This document shows, piece by piece, positions 2,436-20,158 of a stretch of DNA of 64,000 nt. This stretch comes from Bacilli bacterium. GTDB lineage: Bacteria; Bacillota_I; Bacilli_A; ML615J-28; CAG-313. How positions within the stretch are numbered: position 1 is the stretch's first letter; every line of letters begins with the position of its first letter. The translations under genes were made by a program, and so were the position numbers. The DNA is taken from the NCBI GenBank assembly GCA_045589955.1, contig JAZNQD010000064.1, positions 32,203-96,202 of the forward strand. The letters run 5' to 3'. Under the pieces are notes generated by a model that searched no databases, was not told where the DNA came from, and worked only from the letters and a program-made list of their open reading frames with translations.

Positions 2436-2440
2436 TAGTT

Positions 2441-2962: not shown

Positions 2963-2966
2963 CAAT

Positions 2967-3770: not shown

Positions 3771-3785
3771 TAAAGGAGTTAAAAT

Positions 3786-4979
3786 ATGGGAGTTACATTT
3801 GTCGCAATATTTACAACAGCTGTTGTAACCGCAGTAATTGTATTTGAAGTAATTAAAATATTACTTTATAAAACATATACTTTATCTGATGTCGCCCTAG
3901 CAATTATTTTGACTATTCTTTCATGTGTATATGCTTTTGTAGCTCATTTACACCTTGCTATTGAAATCACTGGTGCAATCTTGTTATGTCTTGGAGATGT
4001 TTTATTACTTACAGTATCACTATTTTACTTTGTTGAAAAAACAAGATTGTATTTAATGTATAATAAAAAACTTACTCGTTTTTTAAAAGAATCAGAATAT
4101 GATTTTTATATTCAAGTAAACCAAAAAAATAAAATACGTGATTTTGGCACTTCTTTATTAAAAACAGCAGGATTAACAAAGAAGGATGTCCTTAAAAAGG
4201 ATGTTTGGCACTTTTTATTCGATACACTTGAAATCTTAACAATTAATAAACTTGAAGCAACTACTGCTAATTTTAATAACTTCGTTTCTGAATATGAGGC
4301 CGCAACTTCTAAGTTCAAAACATATAACTTTGAAATGAAAATTGTTATTAAAGAAAGTGATGTAACATATAAGGGTATTATCGAACCAATCTATCTAGGC
4401 AATCACTTAATTGGTCGCAATATCTATTTCTATGTTGATCGAATGAAAAACATTCAACGTCTTAAAGATGAACTTAATAATGCTATTAACGATATTGAAA
4501 AACTGAGAAATCAAAACTATGCAATGATGAGTTTAGCTGATGGTGTATTGATGTATTTTGATTACGAAACAAAATATTATGTAGCTACAGAAAGCTTCTG
4601 TCGTTTTACAAATACTCATCAAAGAGAATATACTTTTGAAGAAATTATTAACTTCATTCATCCAGATGATTTAGAACGTTATATTGAACAATCAGAAACA
4701 ATTAATAGCGCCTCTGTTACAAGATTAAAATTTAGATTACTAATTAATGATACATATTATAATGTGATGGAAGACTCAATATATTTAAATGGTGATACTG
4801 ATCTTGTTTCAATTATTCGCATTTGTGAAAAGAATGAAGAATTAGGGGAAGACTCTGTTTTCTCAACTTATGAAGCAACAAAGATTATTGAAACTTTAAG
4901 TACTACTAATATTGAAGCGGTAATCGAAAAAACAAAAAATATTCTTGATACTGTCATTGGAGATGAAACTGATGAATAA
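3786..4979 (+). CDS. Membrane protein with PAS-like sensory domains and no evident output domain
   Basis: Three hydrophobic N-terminal helices, a coiled-coil linker, and an IHPDDLERY PAS_3-type motif. Confidence 0.6.
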   Translation: MGVTFVAIFTTAVVTAVIVFEVIKILLYKTYTLSDVALAIILTILSCVYAFVAHLHLAIEITGAILLCLGDVLLLTVSLFYFVEKTRLYLMYNKKLTRFLKESEYDFYIQVNQKNKIRDFGTSLLKTAGLTKKDVLKKDVWHFLFDTLEILTINKLEATTANFNNFVSEYEAATSKFKTYNFEMKIVIKESDVTYKGIIEPIYLGNHLIGRNIYFYVDRMKNIQRLKDELNNAINDIEKLRNQNYAMMSLADGVLMYFDYETKYYVATESFCRFTNTHQREYTFEEIINFIHPDDLERYIEQSETINSASVTRLKFRLLINDTYYNVMEDSIYLNGDTDLVSIIRICEKNEELGEDSVFSTYEATKIIETLSTTNIEAVIEKTKNILDTVIGDETDE

Positions 4980-6099
4980 TGTTAGTGCAATTTTATTAAT
5001 GGCTGGTAGCAGTAATCGCTTTGCCCAAAACATTAATAAAACACTTTATGAACTTAATAGTAAGCACTTATTCTTATACTCAATTGAAAAGTTCAATAAA
5101 CTAAATATTCAAAATATTTACTTAGTAATTCGAAAAGAAGATGAAGAACAAATCGTTGATATTTTGAATAATACAGGTAATCTAAATATTAATATTGTTT
5201 GTGGTGGAACAGAAAGACATGAAAGTGTAAAAAATGCTTTAAAGTTAATTAAAACAAAATATGTTTTGATTCATGATGCGGCGCGTCCTTTAACAAACAT
5301 TGAAGATATTAAAAGACTTTATCAGGATGTTGTCTTAGAAAACACTATTTGTGGAAGCTTGTATCATGATGTTATTGATACAATCAAGGAAGTAAGTTTA
5401 GATGTAAGACATTTAGATCGTAGAGTATTAAAAGCAGTAACTACACCTCAAATCTTTAGGAATGATGGATATAAACAAATTTTAGACAACACTTCATTAG
5501 TAACTGATGAACTATCGATCTTTAAAAATCAAAAAATAACATTTACTAAAGAAACATCAACTAATATTAAAGTTACCACAAAAGAAGATTATGAATATGT
5601 AAATTATTTGTTAAATAAGGATCAAACATATAAAATAGGTCATTCTTTTGACTACCATAACTTTTTAGAAGGCAATGAATTAGTATTAGGTGGGGTACAT
5701 ATTCCTTGTTCATTTGGACTTGAAGGATATAGTGATGCTGATGTTGTTTATCACTCTGTTTGCGAGGCAATTCTTGGGGCACTTGGACTTGGTGATATTG
5801 GTACGGTTTTTCCTGATAATAAGATTGAAAACTACAAACGAAATTCGTTAGACTTTGTTGAATATGCTTTTAATAAACTTAAGGAATTCCACTATGAAGT
5901 TGTGAATGTTGATATGATGATTTATCTTCAAAAACCAAATTTAAAAGAATACAAGTTTTTAATTGCTCAAAATATTAAAAAAGTTTTAAATACTGATTCT
6001 GTTAATGTGAAAGCAACAACCCTTGAAAAACAAGGATTGATTGGAACATGTAAAGGAATCGGAACAGAAACAGTCATACTAATTAAAAAGATAGTGTAA
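4972..6099 (+). CDS. ispDF: Bifunctional IspD/IspF (MEP pathway)
   Basis: IspD motifs GGTERHESV, LIHDAARP, TPQ. IspF motifs IGHSFDYH, SDADVVYH, GDIG..FPD, NVKATT. GGAG RBS precedes ATG 4972. Confidence 0.93.
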   Translation: MNNVSAILLMAGSSNRFAQNINKTLYELNSKHLFLYSIEKFNKLNIQNIYLVIRKEDEEQIVDILNNTGNLNINIVCGGTERHESVKNALKLIKTKYVLIHDAARPLTNIEDIKRLYQDVVLENTICGSLYHDVIDTIKEVSLDVRHLDRRVLKAVTTPQIFRNDGYKQILDNTSLVTDELSIFKNQKITFTKETSTNIKVTTKEDYEYVNYLLNKDQTYKIGHSFDYHNFLEGNELVLGGVHIPCSFGLEGYSDADVVYHSVCEAILGALGLGDIGTVFPDNKIENYKRNSLDFVEYAFNKLKEFHYEVVNVDMMIYLQKPNLKEYKFLIAQNIKKVLNTDSVNVKATTLEKQGLIGTCKGIGTETVILIKKIV

Positions 6100-6113
6100 T
6101 ACTATCTTTTTTT
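6085..6113 (+). terminator. Intrinsic terminator after ispDF
   Basis: aaaaagatagt-gtaat-actatcttttt hairpin with T tract. Confidence 0.7.
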
Positions 6114-6157
6114 GTTATTTTATATAGAAAATATTCATAAAATGTATTAGTGATCAT

Positions 6158-6781
6158 ATGTTAAAAAAAGTAATCCTGGTTTTAATAATGTTATTAATTA
6201 TTGCGATACCGGCAATGCTCTTGGCAATGAGTGATAATTATTTTAGTGAGCGAACAGATATCTATATTAAGCAACATGTTAAGGAAAAGACATCTGATAT
6301 TTATGCTAATGTTATTAAAGAAGAATTTAAAGCAATCTATGATGTTGATGAACTTGTTAGTTATAAATTTAATAATAACAATGAAATCGAAAGTGTTCTT
6401 ATAAACAGTTCCAAAGTTAATGATATTATATATATAGCATCATCTTTAATTTCTCAGTCTATCAAAGAAGGAGTTATTGAAAAAGAACTAGAAGAAATAT
6501 CTTTTCCGATTGGTCAGCTAATATCAAAATCAATTTTTGCAGGAGAAGGTCCAGATATTCATATTGAAGTTGATCCAATTACATCATACGAAGTTGATAT
6601 TGAAACCAATATGAAAGAATATGGAATCAATAATATGATATTTGAAATCTATCTTGTTTGTAAAATTGAAATGGAAGTAATGATCCCCTTAAAACAAGAA
6701 AAGATTGTTTGTGATAATAAAACATTAATTTTATCACAAATCCTTCCTGGGGAAGTCCCATATTTTTATTATAAAGCTTAA
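6158..6781 (+). CDS. yunB: Sporulation protein YunB family
   Basis: N-terminal TM; ISFPIGQL...FAGEGPDI, EYGINN, and C-terminal GEVPYFY typical of YunB. Confidence 0.8.
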   Translation: MLKKVILVLIMLLIIAIPAMLLAMSDNYFSERTDIYIKQHVKEKTSDIYANVIKEEFKAIYDVDELVSYKFNNNNEIESVLINSSKVNDIIYIASSLISQSIKEGVIEKELEEISFPIGQLISKSIFAGEGPDIHIEVDPITSYEVDIETNMKEYGINNMIFEIYLVCKIEMEVMIPLKQEKIVCDNKTLILSQILPGEVPYFYYKA

Positions 6782-6855
6782 AACATTAGTTTTAAGTTTT
6801 TTAACATATTAATACAAAAATATAATGATTTGTAGTATAATATGTAATTGAGGTA

Positions 6856-7101
6856 ATGATTATGGAAAATACATTAAAATTAATAAAAAAGACTATTAAA
6901 AAAATTCGCCCTTATATTAACTCTGATGGTGGGGATTTAGAATTTGTAAAATTTGAAGAAGGCATTGTTTATATTCGTTTATTAGGTGCATGTGTGGGAT
7001 GCTCATCTGCCGATACTACGGTAAAAGGTGGAATTGAAACAATGTTCTTAGAAGAAGTACCAGGCGTAATCGGAGTTGAACAAGTCAAGGACCAAGAATA
7101 G
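6856..7101 (+). CDS. NifU/Nfu-type Fe-S cluster scaffold
   Basis: IRPYINSDGGDLE...LLGACVGC (CxxC) motif. Confidence 0.9.
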   Translation: MIMENTLKLIKKTIKKIRPYINSDGGDLEFVKFEEGIVYIRLLGACVGCSSADTTVKGGIETMFLEEVPGVIGVEQVKDQE

Positions 7102-7111
7102 AGGTGTCTTT

Positions 7112-7474
7112 ATGTGTGAAAACGAAAATAAAATTCAACATCAGCCTGGAGACATTGTTTATGGCAAGATTACAAATATCTTAGGATATGGTGCTTTTGT
7201 TCTTGTTGATGATTATGATGGGCTTGTTCATATTTCTGAATTCTCAGATGGATTTGTAAGAAACATCAATGATTTTGTAAAAGTTGGACAAGAAATAAAA
7301 TTACGTATTATTGAAATAGATGAAGAAAGTAAAAGAATGAAGTTAAGTTATAAACAAATTCATAAAACTCGTGGTGTTAGATGCCGTGTTCCAGAATATA
7401 AGATTGGGTTTGAAACAATCGAAAACAAACTTGCATCTTGGATGGAAGAATATGAATACGATAAAAAGAATTAG
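7112..7474 (+). CDS. S1 RNA-binding protein (GSP13/CvfD family)
   Basis: GKITNILGYGAFV...GLVHISE S1 motif; GAGGTG RBS before ATG 7112. Confidence 0.85.
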   Translation: MCENENKIQHQPGDIVYGKITNILGYGAFVLVDDYDGLVHISEFSDGFVRNINDFVKVGQEIKLRIIEIDEESKRMKLSYKQIHKTRGVRCRVPEYKIGFETIENKLASWMEEYEYDKKN

Positions 7475-7988
7475 TTTTTTATCAATACTGATAATTGTTC
7501 TTTTGACACTGACTTCATGTAGAAAGGATCAAATGTTAAGTAACTATCAAAGTCTTAAAGATAAAAATCATATATATAAAGTTTGTCAACCAAAGGAAAT
7601 AATTGAACTATTGAATTCAAAGGAAAGAGCAGTTATTATTTTTTCTTTTCCGGAATGTCCTTGGTGTCAAGCATCAATCCCTTATTTAAATGAAATTGCT
7701 AAAGAACAAAATTATGATAAAATATATTATTTAAATATATTAAAGATTCGCGAAGAAAATAGTGAGGAATATCTAACTATCTTTAATAAAATCCGCTATG
7801 ATATTGGCAATCCTGAAAAGATTAATGCACCGACAGTTATTGTTATTGATAATGGGAAAGTCTTAGGTTATCATATTGATACAGTTGAAAGCCATGTGAA
7901 AAATGATAATGATGTTTTAATGCCAATGAATGAGGAACAAATTGAGGAATTAAAAAATATTTATCGCGAACTTTTAAATCTTAAATAA
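7452..7988 (+). CDS. Thioredoxin-fold lipoprotein
   Basis: Lipobox LTSC; CPWC active site; APT cis-Pro motif. Confidence 0.75.
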   Translation: MNTIKRISFLSILIIVLLTLTSCRKDQMLSNYQSLKDKNHIYKVCQPKEIIELLNSKERAVIIFSFPECPWCQASIPYLNEIAKEQNYDKIYYLNILKIREENSEEYLTIFNKIRYDIGNPEKINAPTVIVIDNGKVLGYHIDTVESHVKNDNDVLMPMNEEQIEELKNIYRELLNLK

Positions 7989-8031
7989 GAATAAAAACAC
8001 AAAGTTAAAAATAAAATATAAGGGTGATTGT

Positions 8032-8676
8032 ATGCTTAAGAAAATTATTTTATTTTTAACTTTATTTTTAACGACTAATGCGGTTATCGCAACAACAGTA
8101 ATAATGGAAAACAACAAACCTGTCATTTATCTTGATCCAGGTCATGGTGGATATGATGGTGGATGTGTTTCTTATAATAAAGATATAATAGAAAAAAACG
8201 TTACGCTAAACATTTCTTTAGCAGTTAAACGTAAATTACAACTTTTAGGGTATAAAGTTATCTTGACAAGAGATACAGATGTTGCCTTAGGGAAAACAAA
8301 GAAAGAAGATATATATAACCGAGTTGATTTAATTAATAAATCCGATGCTTCACTTTACTTAAGCATTCATGCTAATAGCTTTACATCGGGTGATATTAAA
8401 GGTGCTCAAACATTTTATAACCCAAGTAATGATATTAACCGTGACTTAGCAATTACGATGCTTGAAAAAGTAAGATCGCTTGATCCGAGCAATAATCGTG
8501 TTGCTAAAAGCATGACGGGTAAATATTTGCTTGATCATGTTAATGTCCCTGGATGCTTGATTGAGGTTGGATTTATAACTAATATGGAAGATCTAAGAAA
8601 CTTAACTGATGACGCTTATATAAATGACCTTGCAATGCTGATAAGCATAGCAATCAACGAAGTATATAAAAGGTAA
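8032..8676 (+). CDS. N-acetylmuramoyl-L-alanine amidase (Amidase_3, CwlD-like)
   Basis: LDPGHGGYDGG, EK, LTRDTD, SIHAN, GAQTFY, IEVGF motifs; signal/anchor sequence. Confidence 0.88.
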   Translation: MLKKIILFLTLFLTTNAVIATTVIMENNKPVIYLDPGHGGYDGGCVSYNKDIIEKNVTLNISLAVKRKLQLLGYKVILTRDTDVALGKTKKEDIYNRVDLINKSDASLYLSIHANSFTSGDIKGAQTFYNPSNDINRDLAITMLEKVRSLDPSNNRVAKSMTGKYLLDHVNVPGCLIEVGFITNMEDLRNLTDDAYINDLAMLISIAINEVYKR

Positions 8677-8681
8677 TAATT

Positions 8682-9173
8682 ATGAACAATCAAGCTATTA
8701 AAGTAAAAGTAAAGAACATTGAACAAATGATGGGCCTTGGAGAACTAGTTGCAAAATATTCAACTCCTAATCTTGTTATTGGCTTAAATGGAGATCTTGG
8801 TGCAGGTAAAACAGTTCTTACTAAAGGTATTGGAAGATACTTAGGTATTAAGCGTGTTATTAACAGCCCAACATTTACAATTATGAAAATCTATGATACA
8901 ACAAATGAACAAATTAAGAAGTTATATCATTTAGATGTATATCGTTTAGATAATGCAGAAAGTGACTTTGAATTAGAAGAATATTTTTACTTAGATGGCT
9001 TAACTGTTATTGAATGGTCAATTATTATCGAAGACATTCTTCCTGTTGATATGTGGAATATTAAAATCAGTATTTTAAGTGAAAATGAAAGAATAGTTGA
9101 GATTGAACACAACTTGAATAATAATGAATTAGAAGAAGCGTTAAAGGAGCAAAATTATGAAATTATATATTGA
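8682..9173 (+). CDS. tsaE: tRNA t6A biosynthesis ATPase TsaE
   Basis: GDLGAGKT, SPTF, HLDVYRL, IEW motifs. Confidence 0.95.
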   Translation: MNNQAIKVKVKNIEQMMGLGELVAKYSTPNLVIGLNGDLGAGKTVLTKGIGRYLGIKRVINSPTFTIMKIYDTTNEQIKKLYHLDVYRLDNAESDFELEEYFYLDGLTVIEWSIIIEDILPVDMWNIKISILSENERIVEIEHNLNNNELEEALKEQNYEIIY

Positions 9174-9732
9174 TAGTTCAACATCATACCTATATTTAGC
9201 AATTCCTTCTATTAATGCTTCATTTGCAAGAAGTGGCAAAAATGACCATTCAGAAACACTTGTTGATTTTTTAGAAAACTTTTTGAAAGAACATCATATT
9301 AATATCCAGGATATTGAAGAAGTAATTGTAGGACGAGGACCTGGTTCATATACTGGTTTAAGAATTGCCGGAACTGTTGGTAAAGTTTTAAGTTTTGCCA
9401 AAAACTTAACTTTTAAATCGTTTTCTTCTTTAGATCTTTTACTTGCAAGTGTAATTAGCAAAAATGGAAAATACTTAGCACGTATTATTGCAAAGAAAAA
9501 CCACTCATATATTAAAGTGGTTGAAGTAAATGATAATCAAATCAATGTTATCCTTGATGATGCATTTGTTGAAGATACAGAACTAGAAAAGTATAGTGAT
9601 TATCAAATGATTGAACCATCAGATGAATTATTTAGTAGTGCTGTACTTGCTAAAAATATTGAGAATAAAAACTTAACAAGAGAAGAAAGTAAGTATGATT
9701 ATGTACCAAACTACTTACGAAGTGGTATTTAA
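9157..9732 (+). CDS. tsaB: tRNA t6A biosynthesis protein TsaB
   Basis: IDSS, HSETL, GRGPGSYTGLRI, PNYLR motifs; position in tsaE-B-rimI-D cluster. Confidence 0.93.
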   Translation: MKLYIDSSTSYLYLAIPSINASFARSGKNDHSETLVDFLENFLKEHHINIQDIEEVIVGRGPGSYTGLRIAGTVGKVLSFAKNLTFKSFSSLDLLLASVISKNGKYLARIIAKKNHSYIKVVEVNDNQINVILDDAFVEDTELEKYSDYQMIEPSDELFSSAVLAKNIENKNLTREESKYDYVPNYLRSGI

Positions 9733-10170
9733 ATGAAGATGCCAGAAGTAATTATTAGACCAATTACTGTAAGTGATGTATCAAGAATAATTGATCTAGA
9801 AATGAAATACTTAGGAGAAACAATTGGTAGTGATATGCTAATTAGTGAAAGCACTAATCCAACAATAAAGTTTCTTGCAATTGAAAAAAATAATTTATTA
9901 CTTGGATACATTGGCTGCTATCATATTTTAGGGGAATGTGAAATCTTAAATTTTGTTATTGACGGAGCGTTCCAACGCAAAGGATATGGTCAAATGTTAT
10001 TCAACGAACTTCTTAAACAGGTCGATGCAAAGAGAGTAATTCTCGATGTTAGAGTAAATAATGAACAAGGAATGAAGTTTTATTTAAAGAATGGCTTTAG
10101 GAAAATTTCCATTAGAAAAAATTATTATTCCGATGGGACTGATGCCATTGTTATGGAAAAACTGGTATAA
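9733..10170 (+). CDS. rimI: Ribosomal protein alanine N-acetyltransferase RimI
   Basis: GNAT QRKGYG motif, LDVRVNN, RKNYY...DAIVM; synteny. Confidence 0.88.
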   Translation: MKMPEVIIRPITVSDVSRIIDLEMKYLGETIGSDMLISESTNPTIKFLAIEKNNLLLGYIGCYHILGECEILNFVIDGAFQRKGYGQMLFNELLKQVDAKRVILDVRVNNEQGMKFYLKNGFRKISIRKNYYSDGTDAIVMEKLV

Positions 10171-10174
10171 GATT

Positions 10175-11143
10175 ATGAGTAATAAAAAAGTAAGAATATT
10201 AGCAATTGAATCAAGCTGTGATGAAACAAGTATTGCTATTGTTGAAAATGGTAATAAAGTTTTAAGCAACGCTATCTATACACAAATTGATATTCATAAA
10301 GAATTTGGTGGTGTAGTTCCTGAAGTTGCAAGTCGTCATCATATTGCTAAGGTAACATATGTTTTAGAACAAGCTTTAAAGGAAGCTAATACAACAATGG
10401 AAGAAATAGATGAGATTGCGGTAACACAAACTCCTGGACTAATTGGTTCTTTAATGGTTGGAATTAATACAGCTAAAACATTATCACTTGTTTATAATAA
10501 ACCAATTACATATGTAAATCACATTCATGGACATATATACGCAAACGCCATTGAAAGTGATTTTGTCTTTCCAATGCTAGCCCTAGTAGTTTCTGGAGGT
10601 CATACGGAATTAGTACTTATGAAAGATCATTTTGATTTTGAAATCTTAGGGGAAACGCTAGACGATGCTGTTGGTGAAGCTTATGATAAAGTAGCGCGTG
10701 TTGTTGAAGTAGGTTATCCTGGAGGACCAATCTTAGATAAAATGGCTAAACTTGGTAATCCTATTTATCCACTTCCACATATTAAACTTGGTAAAGATAG
10801 TTATGACTTTAGTTTTTCTGGATTAAAATCAGCAGTTATAAATTTACATAACAAGACAAAAGCAAAAGGAGAGACGTTAAATTATAATGATCTTGCAGCA
10901 AGTTTTCAAAATGCCGTGATCGATGTCTTATCAGAAAAAACAAAACGTGCTGCTATTGAGTTTGGAGCAAAAATGGTTATTATTGCTGGTGGTGTTTCAG
11001 CAAACTCAGCTCTTAGAGAAAAGATTAAAAGAGATATGGAAGAACTTAAAATCAAATTTAATGTTCCTAGCTTTAAATACTGTACTGATAATGCAGCAAT
11101 GATTGGTGCAGCTGCGTACTATCAAAAATTAAACGAAAGATAA
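10175..11143 (+). CDS. tsaD: tRNA t6A transferase TsaD
   Basis: LAIESSCDET, GGVVPEVASRHH, HIHGH, SGGHT, DDAVGEAYDK, TDNAAMIG. Confidence 0.97.
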   Translation: MSNKKVRILAIESSCDETSIAIVENGNKVLSNAIYTQIDIHKEFGGVVPEVASRHHIAKVTYVLEQALKEANTTMEEIDEIAVTQTPGLIGSLMVGINTAKTLSLVYNKPITYVNHIHGHIYANAIESDFVFPMLALVVSGGHTELVLMKDHFDFEILGETLDDAVGEAYDKVARVVEVGYPGGPILDKMAKLGNPIYPLPHIKLGKDSYDFSFSGLKSAVINLHNKTKAKGETLNYNDLAASFQNAVIDVLSEKTKRAAIEFGAKMVIIAGGVSANSALREKIKRDMEELKIKFNVPSFKYCTDNAAMIGAAAYYQKLNER

Positions 11144-11171
11144 ACAACTACAAAAATGTAGTTGTTTTTTT
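11142..11171 (+). terminator. Intrinsic terminator after tsaD
   Basis: aaacaactaca-aaaa-tgtagttgttt followed by T tract. Confidence 0.8.
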
Positions 11172-11174
11172 GGT

Positions 11175-11897
11175 TTATGAAAACCCCCAGTTCGACTGGG
11201 GGTTCTAAAAGCTTATAGCTATGCGTAGAAAAAAGCCCATGATATAATTTTGTTGAAGGTCCGCCAACCGAAACAAAATTATATCACAGGAGGTGTCCAA
11301 ATGGACAATAATAGTTTATCACATACGAAGTGGAATTGCAAGTACCATATTGTATTTGCACCCAAATATAGAAGATTAATAATATATGGGAAAATCAAAG
11401 TAGAAATAGGAAAAATAATGAGAGAATTGTGTTCGAGAAAAGGTGTAGAGATATTGGAAGCAGAAGCATGTCCAGATCATATACATATGTTGATAAGTCT
11501 GCCACCAAAGTACTCTGTTTCATCATTCATGGGATATTTGAAAGGAAAAAGTAGTTTGATGATATTTGATAAATTTGCAAATTTGAAATATAAATATGGA
11601 AACAGACAATTTTGGTGCAGAGGATTTTTTGTTGACACAGTAGGAAAAAACAAAAAAGCGATAGCAGAATATATTCGAAATCAACTCACTGAAGACAAGC
11701 AGTATGAGCAACTGAGTATGAAGGAGTTGTTTGACCCGTTCACGGGTGAACCAGTCAAAGAAAGCAAAAAATAAGCTGCTTTAGCAGCAGCTTGGGAAAC
11801 TAAGCAAAAGGCGGACTTTCGAGCGTGTAAAAACGCAGCGCAATAAGAGAGCCTTATAGGCTCAGAGCAAACCACCAGTTTTACTGGTGGTTATGAT
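11175..11897 (+). mobile_element. IS200/IS605-family insertion sequence (IS200 type, tnpA only); ends approximate
   Basis: Subterminal hairpins aacccccagt-tcg-actgggggtt (11182-11204) and aaccaccagt-ttt-actggtggtt (11870-11892) flank a Y1 transposase. Confidence 0.88.
11301..11774 (+). CDS. tnpA: IS200/IS605 HUH (Y1) transposase
   Basis: HTKWNCKYHIVFAPKYRR, DHIHML (HUH), FWCRG, YIRNQ catalytic Tyr; AGGAGG RBS before ATG 11301. Confidence 0.96.
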   Translation: MDNNSLSHTKWNCKYHIVFAPKYRRLIIYGKIKVEIGKIMRELCSRKGVEILEAEACPDHIHMLISLPPKYSVSSFMGYLKGKSSLMIFDKFANLKYKYGNRQFWCRGFFVDTVGKNKKAIAEYIRNQLTEDKQYEQLSMKELFDPFTGEPVKESKK

Positions 11898-12022
11898 TGT
11901 GCTTTTCAAATATGCTAAAATGCTTCTTACATTTATAACTATTTACAAAGAACAATAAAAATAGTATAATATTTTTGTTATTATGGGATAAAATATCCAA
12001 ATTTAATTTATAGAGTGATTTT

Positions 12023-14212
12023 ATGGGAAATGTATTTGAAAAAGTATTAAAGTATATGTCAGAACCAGTAAAATTAGAATCTGACAAAAAATCAACACCA
12101 AGATTCTTTAAATATGTTATACCAATATGTTTGGTAGCAGTATTTATTATAAGATTGTTTAGTTATGTAACAAAGGCAGATGTTCCAATTGGTTTAGATC
12201 AATCACCACTTGATAGTAAGTTCTTAACAATTATAACGTTACTTTCAATCTGGCTTAACTATGTTGCATTGCTTGTTGTAATGATGCGAGGCTTTTACAG
12301 TGTACGTGTTTTACGTCTATTGACTAAATATTTCGCGCCACTTGTATTCTGGCTTAATTTGATTTTATTAAAGCCAACCTTAATAATTTTACAAGGCGAT
12401 GCGCACTTCTCATTACTTTCTGTTCTATTGTTGATAGAACTTGCCTTAGGTAGTGCAATTACAATTTATTACTGGCATAGTGAAGGGATTGATAAACTAA
12501 AATGGAAAGAATTACTAAAAGTATTCGGGTTATTGTTATTAATGATGATTCCTGTAATGCCTCCGTATTTCTTACAGTTTGTTTTTGGTGATGCTAAAGC
12601 AAGTTTATTAATTTTAGACTTTACATTTACACACCGTATTTTCTTATATTTAGGAATAATTATTCCAGTATTATTATTTATTTGTTTAAGAAAAAAGACA
12701 TTAGAAGTTAAACATTTCACATTAACATACATTTGTTTGGCTACATTAATCGTATTCATGGTTGATTACAACTATACATATTTTTCAAGACCATGGGATT
12801 GGCCATTCCACTTATGTAATACTGCAATGTTTATCATTCCAATTTGTTTAATATTTAGAGCTAAGAATCTATTCTACTTCACATATTTCATTAATGTTGT
12901 TGGTGCTTTAATTGCAATGTTAATGCCAAACTATGATGAAATGTCCGATATTTTCTCTTCTGATATTGTTGAATTTTGGTATAATCACTACATTGCATTC
13001 TTTATGCCTGTATTGATTACTTTACTTGGCGTATTTGAACGACCAAGATTAAAACAGTTTATTAGAGCTATGGGATGGTTCCTAGCATACTTTATTTTAG
13101 TAATGATTTTAAATGTAGTTTTCCCAGCAGTATTTAATGAAGATGTTGATTTCTTTTTCTTAAATGGGGATCATATTGTATTGAATGTTTTAGAAAATGT
13201 TCAATTTGTTAGAAAATTATATGATGTTAAATTAACATTAAATGTTCCGCTATTTGGTTGGAGCTTATCTGTACGTCCTATATATCAAGGTATTTTCTTT
13301 GCGGTATATATTGGTATTGCATTAGGAGTATGGTTTGTTTATGAAGAAGGCTATCGCGTTGTTGATAGACTTGTAAAATTAAAAGATGATCTAGATGTAA
13401 TTAAGTTGGATGAATTTGCTTTCCAATCTCAACTTAATGGAAAGGATATTGAATTACCTATGAATGAAAATGCAGGTATCAAATATGAATTACAACATTT
13501 CTCTAAGAAGTATGGAAATAATAAACATTACTCAGTTCAAGATGCTAACTTAGAAGTATATGGTGGGGAAATCTTCGGTTTCTTAGGACCAAATGGTGCT
13601 GGTAAATCTACAATTATAAAAAGCACTGTTGGTATTCAATCAATCACCGAAGGACATATCCAAATTTGTGGATATGATGTAACAAGACAACCAGTTATGG
13701 CAAAACGCCAAATTGGTTTTGTTCCTGACCATTATGCATTATATGAAAACTTAACAGGTCGTGAATATATCAATTATATTGCTGACATATATGAAGTTTC
13801 AAAAGAAGAACGTAATGAAAGAATTGAAAAATACATTAAACTATTTGAATTAGAAAACAAAATTGATAACAAGATTGAAACTTACTCACATGGTATGAAA
13901 CAAAAAATCACAATCATGTCAGCATTAGTTCATAATCCTAAAGTTTGGATTCTAGATGAACCTTTAACAGGGTTAGACCCTAATAGTATTTTCCAAGTTA
14001 AAGAATGTATGAAACAACATGCAAGTGAAGGAAATATTGTTTTCTTCTCAAGCCATATTATTGATATTGTTGAAAAACTTTGTCAACGTATTGCCATTAT
14101 TAAGTCAGGACATATTCAATGTGTTAAAACAGTTCAAGAAATTGAAGAATCTGGTATGACACTTGAAGAATTCTACTTACAAACTATCGAAGATAAGGAA
14201 GTTAATAATTAA
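12023..14212 (+). CDS. Fusion of YwaF/TMEM164-like polytopic membrane domain and C-terminal ABC ATPase
   Basis: Many TM helices with WPFHLCN and FWYNHY. C-terminal Walker A GPNGAGKS, signature YSHGMKQK, Walker B ILDEP, H-loop SSH. Confidence 0.8.
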   Translation: MGNVFEKVLKYMSEPVKLESDKKSTPRFFKYVIPICLVAVFIIRLFSYVTKADVPIGLDQSPLDSKFLTIITLLSIWLNYVALLVVMMRGFYSVRVLRLLTKYFAPLVFWLNLILLKPTLIILQGDAHFSLLSVLLLIELALGSAITIYYWHSEGIDKLKWKELLKVFGLLLLMMIPVMPPYFLQFVFGDAKASLLILDFTFTHRIFLYLGIIIPVLLFICLRKKTLEVKHFTLTYICLATLIVFMVDYNYTYFSRPWDWPFHLCNTAMFIIPICLIFRAKNLFYFTYFINVVGALIAMLMPNYDEMSDIFSSDIVEFWYNHYIAFFMPVLITLLGVFERPRLKQFIRAMGWFLAYFILVMILNVVFPAVFNEDVDFFFLNGDHIVLNVLENVQFVRKLYDVKLTLNVPLFGWSLSVRPIYQGIFFAVYIGIALGVWFVYEEGYRVVDRLVKLKDDLDVIKLDEFAFQSQLNGKDIELPMNENAGIKYELQHFSKKYGNNKHYSVQDANLEVYGGEIFGFLGPNGAGKSTIIKSTVGIQSITEGHIQICGYDVTRQPVMAKRQIGFVPDHYALYENLTGREYINYIADIYEVSKEERNERIEKYIKLFELENKIDNKIETYSHGMKQKITIMSALVHNPKVWILDEPLTGLDPNSIFQVKECMKQHASEGNIVFFSSHIIDIVEKLCQRIAIIKSGHIQCVKTVQEIEESGMTLEEFYLQTIEDKEVNN

Positions 14213-14240
14213 TTATTAATTTCATAGAGGATAATAGAAG

Positions 14241-15962
14241 ATGGCAAAAGAAGTAAAAGTTAAAATGAAAAATGGTACTGAAAAACATAGTGAATTTAAA
14301 TCATTTATTTCAGTAACAAAAATGCAACTAAAAAATAAAGTTGATCTTTCATGGACAAAGAGTGTTAAATCGGTTATTCGTGTTGTTATTTTAACTTTAC
14401 TAAAAAGTATTATTGTCGGAGCACTTGCCTTTGTAATGCTTTATATTCTAAATCTTTTAGGTATATATCGTGCTTGGAACATTTATCAAGTTGTTATTGT
14501 AATACTTTCATTATCACTAATATTATCACTTATTTCTTGTACCTTCGGGTTAACAAAGAATTTATATTTCTCAGATGATAATAAAGTATTAATAACTTTC
14601 CCAGTTTCCGCAAACAAGATTTTTATCTCAAAGATTATCGTTTATTACATATATGAATTAAAAAGAAGTATTACTTTCTTAATTCCAATTACGCTTGCTT
14701 GTTTCTTAATGCTTTTTATTAATAGTAAAATATCAATACTAGTCTTTTTATGGATGTGGATTCCACTGTTATTCATTATTGCAATACCAGTATTAGTTGG
14801 TGCTTTATTATCAATTCCTCTTATGGGGATTAAAATCTTATTTAATAAAGTTCCGGCCTTAAGAGTTATTTTTATCTCTTTAATTTCTGTAGGTGCAATA
14901 AGCTTAGTAGTTTATACAATTTTATCAATTCCATATTATGTTGACTTTAACAATCAAATCTTAATAATTAGTGATGCCTTAAATAACTTCTTAAGAACAT
15001 TAGAAAAATATCTTGTTATTGAAGGACAACTTGTATATCTAATGATTGGTGATTTAAATGATGCAAATATGTATGGAATGAGTATTTGGATCCCAGTAAG
15101 ATTTATTGCTCTTGTTGGTTCCCTTTTATTATTAGCATTATTCAGTTATTTAATTTCAAGACCGCTTTTCTTAAAGATGGTTTCAAAAACAATTGAAAAG
15201 GATGCCGGAATAACAAGATCAACGAAAAATGTTAAACATGGTAAAATATTTACATTCTTCAATAAAGAATTAAAAGTTAATATTCGTAATATTAATGTTT
15301 TAGGAACACTTGCTGTAACATATATTATTACACCAATCCTAATCTTATTAATTAATAAAATCTTTGGAGCAATGGATCTATCAAACTTAGGTCGTGTAAT
15401 GACTTGTGCATTTAATATTTTATTAATATGCTTACCACTGCTTGCAACTAATTCACTTGTAGCATCAATGTATAGTAAGGAAGGAAGAGCAGGTTATATT
15501 AAAAAGACAAAACCAGTTAAGCCTTATTACCCATTACTTGCAAAAATGTCTTTAAGTGTAATCTTATCAATTCCATCAATTATTGTATCTGTAGTAGTAT
15601 TCACAATTACAGGCGGAATTGGTTTAAAATTCTATGATTCAATTATTTTGATACTTGCAATCTTCGCACTTCATTTAGGACATATGTTCTATAGTGCAAC
15701 ATTAGATATTACTAATCCTCAAAATGAACACTATGCAACTAGTGGTGAATCACACAACAATCCAAATGAAGATAAGGCAACTATTGGTGCTTTTGCGTTA
15801 TCAATTGTATTTGCCGTATTTGCATTTATCTTAGTTAATGAATCTTTAATCAGAGGAATTTTCACATTAGCATGTGTTAAATTATTATTTATAGGCGGCT
15901 TAATTTTATTTGCAGGTATGTTACTATTCTTCAAAAATATTAAGGCATATTATGGTAAATAG
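14241..15962 (+). CDS. Putative ABC exporter permease
   Basis: Highly polytopic with two repeated halves (LITFPV..NKIFISK / KTKPVK...LLAK); follows the ABC ATPase fusion. Confidence 0.7.
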   Translation: MAKEVKVKMKNGTEKHSEFKSFISVTKMQLKNKVDLSWTKSVKSVIRVVILTLLKSIIVGALAFVMLYILNLLGIYRAWNIYQVVIVILSLSLILSLISCTFGLTKNLYFSDDNKVLITFPVSANKIFISKIIVYYIYELKRSITFLIPITLACFLMLFINSKISILVFLWMWIPLLFIIAIPVLVGALLSIPLMGIKILFNKVPALRVIFISLISVGAISLVVYTILSIPYYVDFNNQILIISDALNNFLRTLEKYLVIEGQLVYLMIGDLNDANMYGMSIWIPVRFIALVGSLLLLALFSYLISRPLFLKMVSKTIEKDAGITRSTKNVKHGKIFTFFNKELKVNIRNINVLGTLAVTYIITPILILLINKIFGAMDLSNLGRVMTCAFNILLICLPLLATNSLVASMYSKEGRAGYIKKTKPVKPYYPLLAKMSLSVILSIPSIIVSVVVFTITGGIGLKFYDSIILILAIFALHLGHMFYSATLDITNPQNEHYATSGESHNNPNEDKATIGAFALSIVFAVFAFILVNESLIRGIFTLACVKLLFIGGLILFAGMLLFFKNIKAYYGK

Positions 15963-15970
15963 GTGATCGT

Positions 15971-16399
15971 ATGAAAAAATCGGTAATAATAGCTATAATT
16001 GCATTTTATTTATTATCTATTGTCATTGTTGGTATAATGGGTGGTAAATTTAAAACTTATGATGAAGAAGTGTATGTACAAAAAATCATTTGTGAAAACG
16101 CAAATGAATTATCTGAGGCAGATAAAAAAGAATTAGGTGTTGACGTTTCAATTATGAAAGAAATGGGCAACAAAGAAGAAGTTGTTGTTGAAGTTATTTG
16201 TAAAGCATATCCCGCAACTGCAACTGATAAAACAATCATGTTCTACTTCCCTGAAAATCCTGAATTTTATAAAGTAGAATTTGATTCTGCAGAAGGGATT
16301 GCAACAATAACGTTCTATAAAAGAACAACATTAATTTTAACTGCTCGTTCAATTGATAATGGTAGAGCAGAATTAAAAATCAGAATTGACGTTTATTAA
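15971..16399 (+). CDS. Membrane-anchored protein with Ig-like (Big_2-like) domain
   Basis: N-terminal TM; YPATATDKTI and TARSIDNG resemble Big_2 strands. Confidence 0.5.
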   Translation: MKKSVIIAIIAFYLLSIVIVGIMGGKFKTYDEEVYVQKIICENANELSEADKKELGVDVSIMKEMGNKEEVVVEVICKAYPATATDKTIMFYFPENPEFYKVEFDSAEGIATITFYKRTTLILTARSIDNGRAELKIRIDVY

Positions 16400-16431
16400 A
16401 ATTAAAAATATTAAATAGAAAGGAAAAAGTT

Positions 16432-18384
16432 ATGAAAAAAACAATTTTAAGTATTTTTGCACTATTAATGTTAGTTGGTTTTTTAGCATCATGTGAAACT
16501 CCAACTTGCGCACACGTTGATAAAGATGATGACTTATTATGCGACCTTTGTGGTGTTGCTCATGATGATGGGCCTGAACAACCTCAAGAGGCTGAATATG
16601 AAATTAAAATTACATCTGTTAATGAACCTGCATTTATTAGCACTTGGAAACTAAATAAAGGTGAACAAGTTAATAAACAAACTGAATTTGCGGTTTTAGA
16701 TGCAGCTTATCAAGTTGGTGATGACAACGCATTTAATTGTAAACCTTTAGTTACTTTCATTAAAGTAAATAAAGAAACTGGTGCTACTCTTCCAGCTGGT
16801 GTTAGCGATTGGAATTATGAAATTCAAGTTTTAGTTAAAGAAGGCGAAGAATTTGTTGCTTTAGCTGAAACTAATGAATATATTGAAAAAATTGATGCAC
16901 AAAAATGTGCTATTGACTTCTCAGAAGCAGCTATTGGAAAAGAATTCCAAGTTGTTGTTAAACCTGAAGGTTTAACTGAAGAACAAGAAGCAAGTGGACA
17001 TTATCAAACTTCATTCGAATTTACAGTTATTGAAGGTTTCAATGCTTATTCTGCACTTGACTTAGCTTATATTGAAAACAGACCTAACCCAGTTGATGAT
17101 AATGGTGAAGAAGGTACTGATCTTGAAAGAGAAGCTTGGCTTAAGTTTAAAGAAGAAAAAGGTATTGATTTAGAGTATCAACCTGCAGCTGTAATTTTAC
17201 ATAATGATATTAAAGTTACTAAAGCCGATGTTCCTAGTTATTACTTCTGGACAGCTGAAGAAGTTTCTAAATTAGATGCTGACTATAATAGAGTAGTTGG
17301 TTCAATGAGAGACCGTATGGACTTCTATCGTCGTCATTTAGAAGAAGGCGAAGAATTCAAATTATTAGGTAACTACTTCAAAATTGACAACTCAGAATTA
17401 CCAGTTATCGTTCGTGAAAACGATAAAGTAACTCCTGAAGGAACAGTAATCAGCCATACTGCATTATTTAAATTCTCTGGTGCAGGTGATGCTAATGTTG
17501 AATTCGCTCACTTAAGAATCGTTGGTAATGCGGGTAGAACTGAAAATGCTATCTTATCTGGTGGTCAAATCTTAATTAAAGTTACAGGTCCTCAAATGTT
17601 AGCATATAACAACATTTCTGTTAATACATTCATTCACTACTTTGCAGAACACAATGAAGATAAGACAACTGCAGATAACACAACAGTATTTACAGTTGAA
17701 AAATGTAAAGGTTATAATGCATTCAACAGTTTCTTATACAACTGGGGTTCTCACATGATTGTTAAAGATTCTGAATTAATTGGCGCTGGTGGTCCAATTG
17801 TTATTCAAGACCATTGTAATTCAAGTAAAGATAATCATCCAGGTTATATTCCAGAAGTTGAATTTATTAATTCTAAAGTTGAATCATTTGTTGCTGGTTC
17901 TGAAGGTTGGTTCAAAATTGTTCAAGCTGACTCATTAGTTCCAGGTATTAAACAATTATCACAAATCTTCAATATGGTTGGAAAAACATTCGTAGTTCCA
18001 AATGACGAAACTGACCCTGCTAAACAAGCAACATTCTTAAATTTAATAAGTGTAACAAAAGGTCCTCACCAAACATTTACACAAATTAAAATTGAAGGTA
18101 AAGTTGTTAAAGAAGGTCATTCATTTGACTATGGTGTAACTGCTGGCCAAAATGGTAACCCTTATATCAGAGCTGTCTTAGATCAAACATTTACATTAAA
18201 TGCTCCTGCATTCGAAACTAATGCTGGTGGATTTGCATATTTTGATGGTAATGGTTTAGTTGGCTTAGATCAACAATATATTCAAGATCCAACTAACCCT
18301 ATCTTTGCAGGTGATACATTAACAATCTACTACATGGGTATGATGTTAACATTCGGTTACTATAATGTAGGTTACATTCACTAA
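16432..18384 (+). CDS. Large surface lipoprotein of unknown function
   Basis: Lipobox LASC; HVDKDDDLLCDLCG metal-binding-like motif; codon usage suggestive of high expression. Confidence 0.75.
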   Translation: MKKTILSIFALLMLVGFLASCETPTCAHVDKDDDLLCDLCGVAHDDGPEQPQEAEYEIKITSVNEPAFISTWKLNKGEQVNKQTEFAVLDAAYQVGDDNAFNCKPLVTFIKVNKETGATLPAGVSDWNYEIQVLVKEGEEFVALAETNEYIEKIDAQKCAIDFSEAAIGKEFQVVVKPEGLTEEQEASGHYQTSFEFTVIEGFNAYSALDLAYIENRPNPVDDNGEEGTDLEREAWLKFKEEKGIDLEYQPAAVILHNDIKVTKADVPSYYFWTAEEVSKLDADYNRVVGSMRDRMDFYRRHLEEGEEFKLLGNYFKIDNSELPVIVRENDKVTPEGTVISHTALFKFSGAGDANVEFAHLRIVGNAGRTENAILSGGQILIKVTGPQMLAYNNISVNTFIHYFAEHNEDKTTADNTTVFTVEKCKGYNAFNSFLYNWGSHMIVKDSELIGAGGPIVIQDHCNSSKDNHPGYIPEVEFINSKVESFVAGSEGWFKIVQADSLVPGIKQLSQIFNMVGKTFVVPNDETDPAKQATFLNLISVTKGPHQTFTQIKIEGKVVKEGHSFDYGVTAGQNGNPYIRAVLDQTFTLNAPAFETNAGGFAYFDGNGLVGLDQQYIQDPTNPIFAGDTLTIYYMGMMLTFGYYNVGYIH

Positions 18385-18386
18385 AA

Positions 18387-18430
18387 ATAAAAAAAATTCA
18401 GATTCTAAAAAAGAATCTGAATTTTTTATT
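18387..18430. terminator. Bidirectional terminator between convergent lipoprotein genes
   Basis: aaaaaattcagattct-aaaaa-agaatctgaattttt with A/T tracts on both sides. Confidence 0.85.
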
Positions 18431-20158
18431 TTACCAAATCAAATCTGCAAATTCAGGACAGTCAATGAATGGATTTCTATTGCCTTGAATTGCTTCAATC
18501 TTATTATTTCTATTGATTTCTAATTCACTAACAGGGTCTAAGGCATTCCATTCTAATAACACATGAATACCTTCACAAACTGAATTAAATGAATAACTGT
18601 CTGATTCAGGGTATCTTACCATTAAATAGAAGATAATTCTTGCGATATCCCCTTTGTAATCATCATTTGGTACATAGTAACCACTAGAATTTCCATATTT
18701 TTGGTTACCACGACTTGAGTTAACAGAAATGCTACATGGGCGAATATGGTGTAAGTCTGCACCTGCACCAGAAGTTTTGAACCAACCTAAGCTTTGTGGC
18801 CATAAGTGTTCTCTGTTCCAGTCATTATTTAAGTCATATGATTTAGGAATTGATTGACCAGTATAGAATAAAATCATATTATTAGGGTTATTTGGGTCTT
18901 CATCAATATCAGGAAGTTCTAACTTACAATCAGAATAAGTAGTGATTTTCTTATGAGTTGAAGTGATTAAAGTTCTAAGAGCTGATTTTAATGCATCACC
19001 TGATAAACCAAGAACTGATTGATAGTATTCTTCGTTATCAATATCTAAGTCACCTGGATCAACTGGTGGACGTTCAGGAATAACTGGTTGGTCAACACCA
19101 TCTTTTAAATCTTCTGGATGATATAAGTATGCAATAAATGTAGTTGTTGCATAAGTGATTTTATTAGCACTATATGTTTGATAAGTCTTACGACTATCAG
19201 TACCTAACATATAGTCAACACCATCAACAGGGTTTGTTAATGTATTTACAGTTTCATCAAATTTCCAAGCATCACCTGGAGTATTTACATAAACAACATT
19301 AATATGTGTTCCACTTGGAACAATATCTAAATAAACTTTTTGATTATTCTTTAAGTGATATACATAATAACCACCATTTGCTTCTTCTAAGTAAATAATA
19401 ATAGATTCTGCAAGAATAGTTGTTGTTTCGTAGTAGTAACCATTCATATTACCTGTAATAAAGAATTCTTTATTTAAAGTAGAATGATTAAGTTTTAAAA
19501 CATAAGGAACGTTTGTTTTAACTTTAATAACGTAGCCTTCTTCAGAGACATCACTATCATCAGGAGTGTAGTTTGGATCAACTTCCCCACATTCACACTT
19601 ACCATCAATGAATTCATGAACATGTGGTGGAATATAGTTTGGATCAACTTCCCCACATTCACATTCACCATCAATAAATTCATGAACGTGTGGAACATAG
19701 TTAGGATCAACTTCACCACATTCACATTTTCCTTCAACAAATTTATGAGTATGTGGTGGAATATATTCAGGATCTTTTTCACCACATTCGCATCTTCCAT
19801 CAACAAATTCATGGACATGTGGAACATATTCATAAATACCGTTTACAATTTGACTTGGAGATGTATATTCACCATAAGGTAATGTTTGAATAGTATAGTT
19901 AATACTTTCTATTTCGACATCCTTAAAATTATAACTTGTTCCAATAACTATTTTTGAATAAGATTTACCGTCTAGTGTATAAGTTATTTCAAATGATAGT
20001 TTTTCTTCAGGGCTTGGACTATCCCAAAGAATTTTTGTTTCTTCGCATCTTAAGTTAGTTGGTGCTGGTGCTTGGTTACCTGCTGATTCACAAGCGCATA
20101 AAAGTCCAATACTTAAGAACATAATTAATATAAATGTTAATCGTTTAAATAATTTCAT
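18431..20158 (-). CDS. Endonuclease I family extracellular nuclease lipoprotein with His/Cys repeats
   Basis: Lipobox LCAC; WNREHLWPQS, DLHHIRPC..VNSSRGN, KGDIAR, QGNRNPFID. Confidence 0.9.
   Translation of the reverse strand: MKLFKRLTFILIMFLSIGLLCACESAGNQAPAPTNLRCEETKILWDSPSPEEKLSFEITYTLDGKSYSKIVIGTSYNFKDVEIESINYTIQTLPYGEYTSPSQIVNGIYEYVPHVHEFVDGRCECGEKDPEYIPPHTHKFVEGKCECGEVDPNYVPHVHEFIDGECECGEVDPNYIPPHVHEFIDGKCECGEVDPNYTPDDSDVSEEGYVIKVKTNVPYVLKLNHSTLNKEFFITGNMNGYYYETTTILAESIIIYLEEANGGYYVYHLKNNQKVYLDIVPSGTHINVVYVNTPGDAWKFDETVNTLTNPVDGVDYMLGTDSRKTYQTYSANKITYATTTFIAYLYHPEDLKDGVDQPVIPERPPVDPGDLDIDNEEYYQSVLGLSGDALKSALRTLITSTHKKITTYSDCKLELPDIDEDPNNPNNMILFYTGQSIPKSYDLNNDWNREHLWPQSLGWFKTSGAGADLHHIRPCSISVNSSRGNQKYGNSSGYYVPNDDYKGDIARIIFYLMVRYPESDSYSFNSVCEGIHVLLEWNALDPVSELEINRNNKIEAIQGNRNPFIDCPEFADLIW
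19562..19828 (-). repeat. Four tandem 63-66 bp coding repeats (HxHxFxxGxCECGExDPxYxP)
   Basis: Visible in both DNA and translation. Confidence 0.9.

Follow-up and report, generated by a model that had tools for sequence, protein, structure and literature searches.

The ATGY superfamily of membrane proteins is defined, in the accessible text of its description, by a variable Cys, Ser or Thr nucleophile together with an invariant His, and the same text describes a Cys/His dyad in TMEM164 and assigns this protein a phospholipid-to-lysophospholipid transacylase activity (bioRxiv 10.1101/2022.07.06.498872). An acyl-Cys123 thioester intermediate of TMEM164 is reported in the available part of a cryo-EM paper (PMC12830759). 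For LhaT (YpjA, DUF1405) of Bacillus subtilis, an ATGY-superfamily lipoprotein heptaprenylglyceryl N-acetyltransferase, the accessible text describes a membrane enzyme on the outer face that moves an ester-linked acyl group (acetyl) from a lipid donor to the alpha-amine of the lipoprotein, with the donor flipped by an unidentified factor (PMC12345273). In this study, we analyzed a window of 64,000 nucleotides (nt) from a gut Bacilli bacterium (GTDB lineage Bacteria; Bacillota_I; Bacilli_A; ML615J-28; CAG-313; GenBank assembly GCA_045589955.1, contig JAZNQD010000064.1, positions 32,203 to 96,202) and focused on a four-gene cassette within it, in which a membrane domain of the TMEM164/YwaF family is fused to an ATP-binding cassette (ABC) ATPase. 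The explanation that we favor, and that as a whole has about an even chance of being right, is a single envelope machine in which a type-V exporter would operate with an outward-facing Cys/His transacylase, the lipoprotein anchor being the favored acceptor. Conservation, structural modeling and the analogy to TMEM164 make it probable that the cassette encodes an acyl-transfer enzyme that is active, faces outward and operates together with a type-V exporter; that the cognate lipoprotein is the target of this enzyme is a more tentative proposal, for which we would not claim an even chance. A literature search, with most subscription journals outside its reach, returned nothing on the function of any bacterial YwaF protein and nothing on a YwaF-ABC fusion or a cassette of this kind.

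The features of the locus, with positions in the window, are as follows.

12023..14212, + strand: fusion gene, 729 amino acids (aa), a membrane domain with 12 transmembrane (TM) helices plus an ABC ATPase (open reading frame (ORF) list, Pfam)
12101..12556, + strand: N-terminal extension, five predicted TM helices, residues 27-178, present in the ABC-associated long form only (AlphaFold 2 (AF2) model)
12620..13357, + strand: core with the TMEM164/YwaF fold, residues 200-445 (Pfam, VIA, conservation, topology)
13358..13477, + strand: stretch where the last TM helix is predicted to run on into the cytoplasm, with the linker that joins it to the ATPase (AF2 model)
13478..14209, + strand: ABC nucleotide-binding domain of the ABCA/DrrA (ABC-2, type V) kind (Pfam, NCBIfam, PDB, motifs)
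14241..15962, + strand: 12-TM permease, 573 aa, predicted to have two fused transmembrane domain (TMD) halves, probably belonging to the PF16949 family as a divergent sequence (relatives, hydropathy)
15971..16399, + strand: 142-aa protein, N-terminal TM anchor and one Big_2-like Ig domain (iterated hidden Markov model (HMM))
16432..18384, + strand: 650-aa lipoprotein with lipobox, linker and predicted beta-helix (ORF, AF2, VIA)
11942..11970, + strand: best sigma-70-like promoter match, TTTACA-17-TATAAT, 11/12 (consensus match only)
18391..18427, between convergent genes: hairpin of 16 pairs flanked by A/T runs (called on the - strand)

The four + strand genes lie exactly where an initial annotation, made from the sequence and its ORFs, had placed them, with the short spacing it described (gaps of 28, 8 and 32 nt). 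The motifs it quoted are all present and are invariant in 30 aligned fusions: WPFHLCN (residues 260-266), FWYNHY (318-323) and DFFFL (376-380) in the membrane part, and the Walker A sequence GPNGAGKS (522-529), the signature YSHGMKQK (621-628), the Walker B sequence ILDEP (643-647) and the H-loop SSH (676-678) in the ATPase. Its expectation that the N-terminal domain belongs to the TMEM164/YwaF family was borne out by Pfam, where residues 200-390 match PF14808 (TMEM164; E 2.3e-21, 76.8 bits against a cut-off of 25) and no ABC permease family is matched; the ATPase is recognized at residues 506-648 (PF00005, ABC_tran; E 1.8e-28). An AF2 model of residues 1-486, built from an alignment of 82 relatives, has a pLDDT of 92 and a pTM of 0.90, with 12 membrane helices ending near residue 445 and a final helix (419-470) that extends into the cytoplasm toward the ATPase. 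The top VIA match of this model is the cryo-EM structure of TMEM164 (9lw1_A; Z 12.3, rmsd 3.7 A, 189 aligned residues, model 224-448 against 85-280 of 9lw1_A), the next entry reaching only Z 5.3. In the predicted structure, then, the last seven of the 12 membrane helices are a TMEM164/YwaF-fold domain. Other comparisons gave little: Foldseek against the PDB ranked TMEM164 eighth, with a probability of 0.77, and returned no entry at E <=0.001 for either the N-domain model or the lipoprotein model; a single-sequence search of the PDB with the N-domain found nothing at E <=10; a profile of 29 N-domains reached bacteriorhodopsin alone (E ~1) and not TMEM164; and a profile still containing the ATPases was swamped by ABC matches.

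The evidence for an enzyme comes from the residues that this domain has kept. Among the 30 fusions, which share 50-80% identity, the invariant membrane residues include E139, H204, P261, H263, C265, N266, N291, N321, H322, N364, D376 and N381. Across the 82 divergent relatives, down to 21% identity, P261 is present in all 82, C265 and H322 in 79 each, H204 in 77 and E139 in 64, so that the conservation part of the Cys/His dyad suggested by the initial annotation holds far beyond the fusions; in the three exceptions C265 is replaced by S, T and Y. H204, P261, C265, H322 and N364 are also common to three stand-alone paralogues of the same genome. The positions agree with the family rule, the nucleophile lying on core TM2 and the invariant His on core TM4. 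With the C-terminal ATPase set as cytoplasmic, the positive-inside rule gives a consistent topology, inner loops carrying 18 Lys and Arg residues and outer loops 8. This topology places H204, H263 and C265 at outer helix ends, H322, N291, N364 and E139 in outer halves, and D376-N381 in an outer loop, with P261 likewise on the outer side, and the predicted site therefore faces the outer leaflet.

These observations also bear on whether the N-terminal domain has ceased to be an enzyme and instead serves as a structural, regulatory or docking module, or even as the transporter's own TMD. The five extra helices, which have no known fold match, could be such a docking module (residues 27-178 gave no clear structural match, Z <=5.3, in VIA, when compared within the whole N-domain model rather than folded alone), and the silence of the literature on any bacterial YwaF function leaves room for the idea. 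It is nonetheless highly improbable, given that the nucleophile and the His have each been retained in nearly all relatives. In addition, the inner loops of the membrane domain are 2-8 residues long and therefore leave no room for a coupling helix, so the domain is unlikely to be the transporter's own TMD, and a permease with a predicted type-V plan is always the next gene.

The best NCBIfam entries for the ATPase are DrrA and GldA, both under their equivalog cut-offs, and its best PDB matches are the ATPase domains of ABCA3, ABCA4 and ABCA1 (E down to 2.5e-64). Lower in the same list stand two ATPases of type-V exporters, NosF and Rv1218c (the latter at E 5.5e-30). The initial annotation had taken the next gene to be the separate transporter TMD, and comparison with relatives supports this assignment. 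The permease aligns with 34 relatives, and PF16949 is matched by 25 of these 35 sequences, at best with E 1.2e-13. Weak ABC-2 membrane matches occur in a few relatives, and the same permease follows stand-alone copies of the related ATPase. Hydropathy resolves two six-helix halves, with basic segments preceding TM1 and TM7 and conserved basic cytoplasmic loops after TM2 (L108, D113, P121, K131) and TM8 (G415, K422, P425, K435). By hydropathy and conservation, the permease thus fits the type-V plan; a sequence search of the PDB gave no match, Rv1217c included.

The third gene appears to encode a companion of the permease. Its 142-aa product has an N-terminal TM helix and no Pfam match above cut-off, and an iterated HMM groups it with the N-terminal module of Big_2-repeat proteins, in keeping with its first description as a membrane-anchored Ig-like protein. 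In fused loci the HMM detects a small homologue with a TM anchor just behind the permease, in split loci (defined below) a longer one of about 310 or 967 aa, and behind ATPase-permease pairs with no YwaF domain it matches the N-termini of TM-anchored proteins of 772-2080 aa. Four of the latter were scanned and all contain Big_2 (E down to 1.3e-68), two of them with a weak, sub-cut-off Beta_helix match. This pattern indicates that a TM anchor with a first Ig domain is a constant companion of the permease family, of which the 142-aa protein, on HMM evidence, is the minimal form.

We assessed how widely this arrangement is conserved in 80 loci from species genomes (labeled L###) and in 41 genomes of the host's order (labeled G###, with G000 the source genome). 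A search with residues 1-476 against 1.84 billion cluster representatives gave 232 clusters at E <=0.001. Among the best 150 of these 50%-identity clusters, 53 are at least 650 aa long, all with Walker A, and 46 are 400-649 aa, 8 of them with Walker A; since clusters of the second size mostly have no Walker A, a long stand-alone form exists too. All 120 homologues among the matches listed (50-99% identity, 562-842 aa), which carry the NCBI name 'YwaF family protein', hold both PF14808 and an ABC domain. The loci take three forms. In fused loci (L006-L047, L053-L055 and L073) a homologous permease is immediately next wherever the contig reaches; in split loci (L048, L052, L056, L058, L064, L081 and L085) the long N-domain, the ATPase and the permease are three adjacent genes; and in 27 YwaF-less loci a related ATPase has no N-domain match in its flanks, a permease being detected in 22. 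The hosts that the records name belong to the Bacillota (Bacilli and Christensenellaceae-type Clostridia) and to the Mycoplasmatota (Acholeplasmataceae, Izemoplasmatales and Anaeroplasmataceae). Within the order of the source genome, 22 of 41 genomes have the long form. In a quick IQ-TREE phylogeny of the ATPase domains, the 47 fused sequences fall on one side of a branch (SH-aLRT 97), the 27 ATPase-only sequences fall on one side of another (96), and the seven split sequences are placed between the two groups. With this tree shape, one fusion event suffices.

Together, these data leave almost no weight on the idea that the fusion is an assembly artefact or a read-through of two genes. The one observation in its favor is that separate genes do occur, as the split forms of other lineages. 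Against it stand the 120 fused homologues and 15 related genomes that, in addition to the source, have a fused frame, 704-766 aa in length; in 13 the frame has no interruption, and in the other two (G032 and G006) one stop falls within the match. Contigs of two studies, moreover, cross the domain junction gap-free (X1 record 1, 12023-13954; X5 record 18, 13298-13908). Two expectations of the initial annotation were thereby upheld: the fusion is no one-off, and the neighborhood survey found the four-gene order conserved. Several genomes carry more than one copy. In seven (G004, G016, G018, G021, G022, G027 and G037) a fused copy of 704-788 aa is accompanied by a separate long-form N-domain gene of 473-497 aa and, judged from the sequences, two paralogous systems coexist there. 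A Clostridia contig (L023) has two full tandem cassettes, at 2-7596 and 7761-14435, each with fusion, permease, small anchored protein and lipoprotein. The source genome has four stand-alone short-form YwaF genes (L002, L003, L004 and L005), of which L003 is broken by a TAA into two ORFs.

A clue to the acceptor is the way in which surface proteins are anchored in the three kinds of locus. We counted ORFs of at least 250 aa with a lipobox within the cassette and found one in 35 of 37 assessable fused loci, in 5 of 7 split loci and in 1 of 17 assessable YwaF-less loci, the last a doubtful case behind a 576-nt gap. The four misses were traced to the pattern or the search range: lipoboxes are seen in L035, L052 and L058, and the L041 homologue is upstream of the fusion. 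In YwaF-less loci a TM-anchored ORF directly follows the permease in 8 of 17 assessable cases. These counts suggest that lipid anchoring and the YwaF domain occur together and that the surface proteins of YwaF-less loci are TM-anchored. In the window, the downstream lipoprotein proposed by the initial annotation is confirmed by a lipobox, L-A-S-C, at residues 18-21, followed by a disordered linker (22-52), with Cys21 retained in at least 90% of 25 homologues. A family HMM built for it matched 34 ORFs, every one in a fused locus. In three of these loci, L041, L043 and L046, the lipoprotein gene is directly upstream of the fusion gene, so that the gene set is kept and the order changed. Outside the four genes there is no conserved neighbor: among 124 flanking ORFs from 43 loci (126 minus two of L023 that belong to its second cassette), nearly every family occurs at 1-3 loci, and most are unrelated housekeeping genes.

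The fold of the lipoprotein points in a different direction, toward glycans. Its AF2 model (pLDDT 83.4) has a right-handed parallel beta-helix at about 200-650, and the N-terminal part is beta-rich and appears Ig-like, in the initial annotation as in ours. The best 50 VIA entries, at Z 11.2-15.1, are without exception beta-helix proteins. Most are pectate or alginate lyases, polygalacturonases or depolymerases of phages, and VexL, a depolymerase from an ABC-dependent capsule system, is among them; Pfam Beta_helix itself is matched at E 0.11. ABC export of lipid-linked glycans and glycolipids is well known from Wzm/Wzt, KpsMT and TarGH. One could thus imagine that the exporter carries a glycolipid, or a glycan linked to lipid, to the outside, that the YwaF domain O-acylates or re-anchors it at the outer face, and that the beta-helix lipoprotein trims or modifies the polymer. 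Such a model would accommodate the Big_2 proteins that follow the wider ATPase-permease family, with their weak Beta_helix matches in two of the four scanned, and the stand-alone TMEM164 gene and Wzy_C gene that flank the cassette in L022. We nevertheless consider it rather unlikely. No glycosyltransferase family was found among the flanking ORFs described above, nor any conserved polymer-synthesis gene, and the model leaves unexplained the switch from TM to lipid anchor exactly where the YwaF domain appears. The lipoprotein HMM, followed to E values up to 1, matched none of the Big_2 proteins with a TM anchor in YwaF-less loci and therefore gives no support for a beta-helix homology between the two types of surface protein.

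The biology of the host suggests a further possibility, that the system remodels phospholipids or scavenges lipids in a fatty-acid auxotroph: the transacylase would act on exogenous or outer-leaflet lipids and lysolipids, the ABC transporter would flip the products, and the surface proteins would capture host material. The source genome is 94.8% complete at 2.0 Mb, and genomes of the order span 1.0-2.1 Mb. Ketoacyl synthase (PF00109) was found neither in the source genome nor in 34 of the 41 genomes of the order and was detected in all 14 control genomes, so that by gene content the order looks like one of fatty-acid auxotrophs. The resemblance of the ATPase to the phospholipid exporters ABCA3, ABCA4 and ABCA1 and the phospholipid transacylation described for TMEM164 in the accessible text (bioRxiv 10.1101/2022.07.06.498872) would fit such a role. 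So would the FakA and DegV genes beside the cassette in L006 and L029. These fatty-acid kinase components (DegV/FakB, FakA; 5083-7670 in L006 and 6371-8260 in L029) adjoin too few cassettes to establish linkage. We regard the remodeling model as unlikely. Genomes with a strong synthase match carry the long form in 2 of 6 cases and the remaining genomes in 20 of 35, a distribution that does not discriminate and in which related genomes are not independent; on these numbers, a link between the cassette and loss of fatty-acid synthesis was dropped. Remodeling would also leave the strict linkage to one lipoprotein family unexplained, and the four stand-alone YwaF paralogues of the same genome could already do bulk work.

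Our results are thus most consistent with the envelope machine introduced at the outset, in which the transacylase would act on an outer-leaflet lipid, with the anchor of its own lipoprotein as the favored candidate, because YwaF-less relatives have TM anchors and because LhaT N-acetylates lipoproteins. In such a machine, the exporter core would consist of one 12-TM permease, with its two fused TMD halves, and two copies of the ABCA/DrrA-like ATPase. Each ATPase would bear an N-terminal 12-helix domain with its predicted Cys265/His322 center in the outer leaflet, and the small TM-anchored Big_2-like protein would be an accessory partner of the permease. An acyl chain would pass from a membrane lipid to a Cys265 thioester and then to an acceptor at the outer face, and ATP hydrolysis would drive the permease either to bring the lipid donor to the outer leaflet or to remove the product. 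The favored acceptor would be the lipid anchor or the free N-terminal amine of the co-encoded beta-helix lipoprotein. We infer catalysis, its coupling to transport and the identities of donor and acceptor, and ping-pong chemistry by analogy to TMEM164. The comparative evidence strengthens the original suggestion that acyl transfer is tied to export powered by ATP and may have the lipoprotein as its target. A more specific version, in which the exporter flips the acyl donor and the YwaF enzyme N-acylates or remodels one dedicated lipoprotein, would make the cassette a self-contained machine for anchor acylation and a private counterpart of Lnt or LhaT; in this complete form we consider it doubtful.

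Several observations weigh against the favored explanation. A lipoprotein acyltransferase would make sense of its ATPase only if the donor must be flipped, and the predicted beta-helix, with its likeness to glycan lyases and hydrolases, suits glycan export equally well. Because the tree needs one change, possibly a single ancestral event, the co-occurrence of lipid anchoring with the YwaF domain counts as few independent cases. The correspondence of C265 and H322 to C123 and H181 of TMEM164 is read from alignment offsets (265-123=142, 322-181=141), H263 is not kept in the stand-alone paralogues, and the TMEM164 metal ligands E106, H124 and Y177 have no verified counterpart in the fusion. The permease of the window has no Pfam match of its own, so that its family placement rests on relatives. 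Finally, the predicted complex of the permease with the 142-aa protein scores an ipSAE of 0.59 against 0.01 for the best control, with contact agreement of at least 67% and partner pLDDT of at least 71, which the tool rates as 'weak support'. Among 157 solved complexes 116 pass the mark, as do 2 among 215 mismatched pairs; passes at ipSAE <=0.60 comprise just 18 of the 157 solved complexes and both passing mismatches.

The layout of the locus suggests that 12023-18384 is transcribed as one operon. The promoter-like site lies 53 nt 5' of the ATG of the fusion gene (consensus matches in the region number 53 against 43.5 expected), a hairpin follows the last stop, and none of the + strand junctions between cassette genes has a convincing terminator-like site, two weak ones falling within genes; we read a single operon because of these three features. 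The hairpin at 18391..18427 is, from its sequence, likely a two-way terminator. Directly 5' of the operon, an IS200-like Y1 transposase gene (11250-11774, +; PF01797, E 9.2e-41) separates it from the preceding genes. On the other side, a convergent gene (18431-20158, -) encodes an Endonuclease_1 lipoprotein (Pfam E 1.1e-31) with four tandem Cys/His-rich repeats of ~22 aa of the type H-x-H-x-F-x-x-G-x-C-E-C-G-E, and a similar C-x-x-C-G stretch occurs once in the disordered N-terminal linker of the cassette lipoprotein (16495-16587, +). The initial annotation had also described strongly biased codons in the cassette lipoprotein gene, but its effective number of codons (Nc) is 32.5 against 33.4-40.8 in seven neighboring genes, with similar GC content at third codon positions (GC3), and the bias is not distinctive. 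Elsewhere, the source genome has two Lgt and two Lsp matches (contigs C66, C13 and C68), with one Lgt in the window at about 34541-35404 (+). Duplicated Lgt and Lsp are unusual for so small a genome. An FtsW/RodA match is also present in the source genome.

Our study has implications for a widespread bacterial family. Bacterial YwaF proteins are here tied, by fusion in most lineages or by adjacency, to an ATP motor, a permease and one lipoprotein family, and this gives them a testable role. If the anchor is indeed acylated, the cassette would give gut Bacillota and Mycoplasmatota a new way to modify their lipoproteins, a modification that helps to determine TLR2 recognition, and would contain a dedicated ABC flippase supplying the acyl donor to the outer face, the step still unidentified for LhaT. 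Were the self-contained machine correct, a bacterial YwaF protein would for the first time have a function, extracellular acylation would have its first identified donor flippase, and the machine would explain lipoprotein modification in wall-poor, fatty-acid-auxotrophic Bacillota and Mycoplasmatota that are taken to lack Lnt (no search for Lnt was made). Even with another lipid target, an acyltransferase-type domain built onto an ABC ATPase would be an undescribed coupling of lipid chemistry to transport.

Finally, the cassette can be compared with described systems part by part. Its ATPase is closest to ABCA1, ABCA3, ABCA4 and ABCA7 (PDB matches at E 2.5e-64 to 5e-49). ABCA proteins are type-V exporters that hand lipid to extracellular domains. 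They differ from the cassette in being eukaryotic, in forming the full transporter from a single chain whose extracellular domains are large, and in having no acyltransferase. The proposed logic of acylation resembles that of Lnt, the Gram-negative apolipoprotein N-acyltransferase, in which a phospholipid acyl chain forms a thioester with an active-site Cys and is passed to the lipoprotein N-terminus at the outer face. Lnt differs in having a nitrilase-type periplasmic domain, an unrelated fold and no ABC fusion. For the permease, the nearest plan is that of Rv1217c-Rv1218c of Mycobacterium tuberculosis (PDB 8K1M/8K1N), where the accessible text describes two TMDs in one polypeptide and a single kind of ATPase present twice; connecting helices come ahead of TM1 and TM7, and the coupling helices are those of the TM2-3 and TM8-9 intervals (PMC11406275). 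At ~550 aa with fused TMDs, Rv1217c resembles the predicted layout of the window permease, and the positions of its connecting and coupling helices fit the conserved basic segments of the latter. The pair differs in that it is described as a drug exporter, its ATPase bears no enzyme domain, it lacks dedicated surface proteins, and the two permeases do not match in sequence. Lit was considered as a relative and rejected, since the available text gives it four TM helices, an extracellular cap, two catalytic His and a fold of its own (PMC8275575).

Two systems come closest to the enzyme. LhaT shares the ATGY superfamily and serves, by analogy, as the functional model for the favored explanation. 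The fusion is not a LhaT member: LhaT belongs to PF07187, has six TM helices, stands alone with no ABC partner and acts on lipoproteins generally, with a donor made by PcrB and YvoF. PF07187 (DUF1405) was not found in the source genome, at 94.8% completeness. Human TMEM164, a CoA-independent phospholipid transacylase, is the nearer relative in structure, with the same Pfam family and fold, a Cys at a helix start and a His two helices later at matching offsets. By analogy, the two may also share their chemistry, an acyl-Cys thioester passed to a second lipid, as the accessible texts present it for TMEM164 (PMC12830759; bioRxiv 10.1101/2022.07.06.498872). What distinguishes the bacterial domain from TMEM164 is the P-x-H-L-C-N motif, with a His preceding the Cys, the five extra N-terminal helices, the fused or adjacent ABC ATPase, and an operon shared with a permease and surface proteins.

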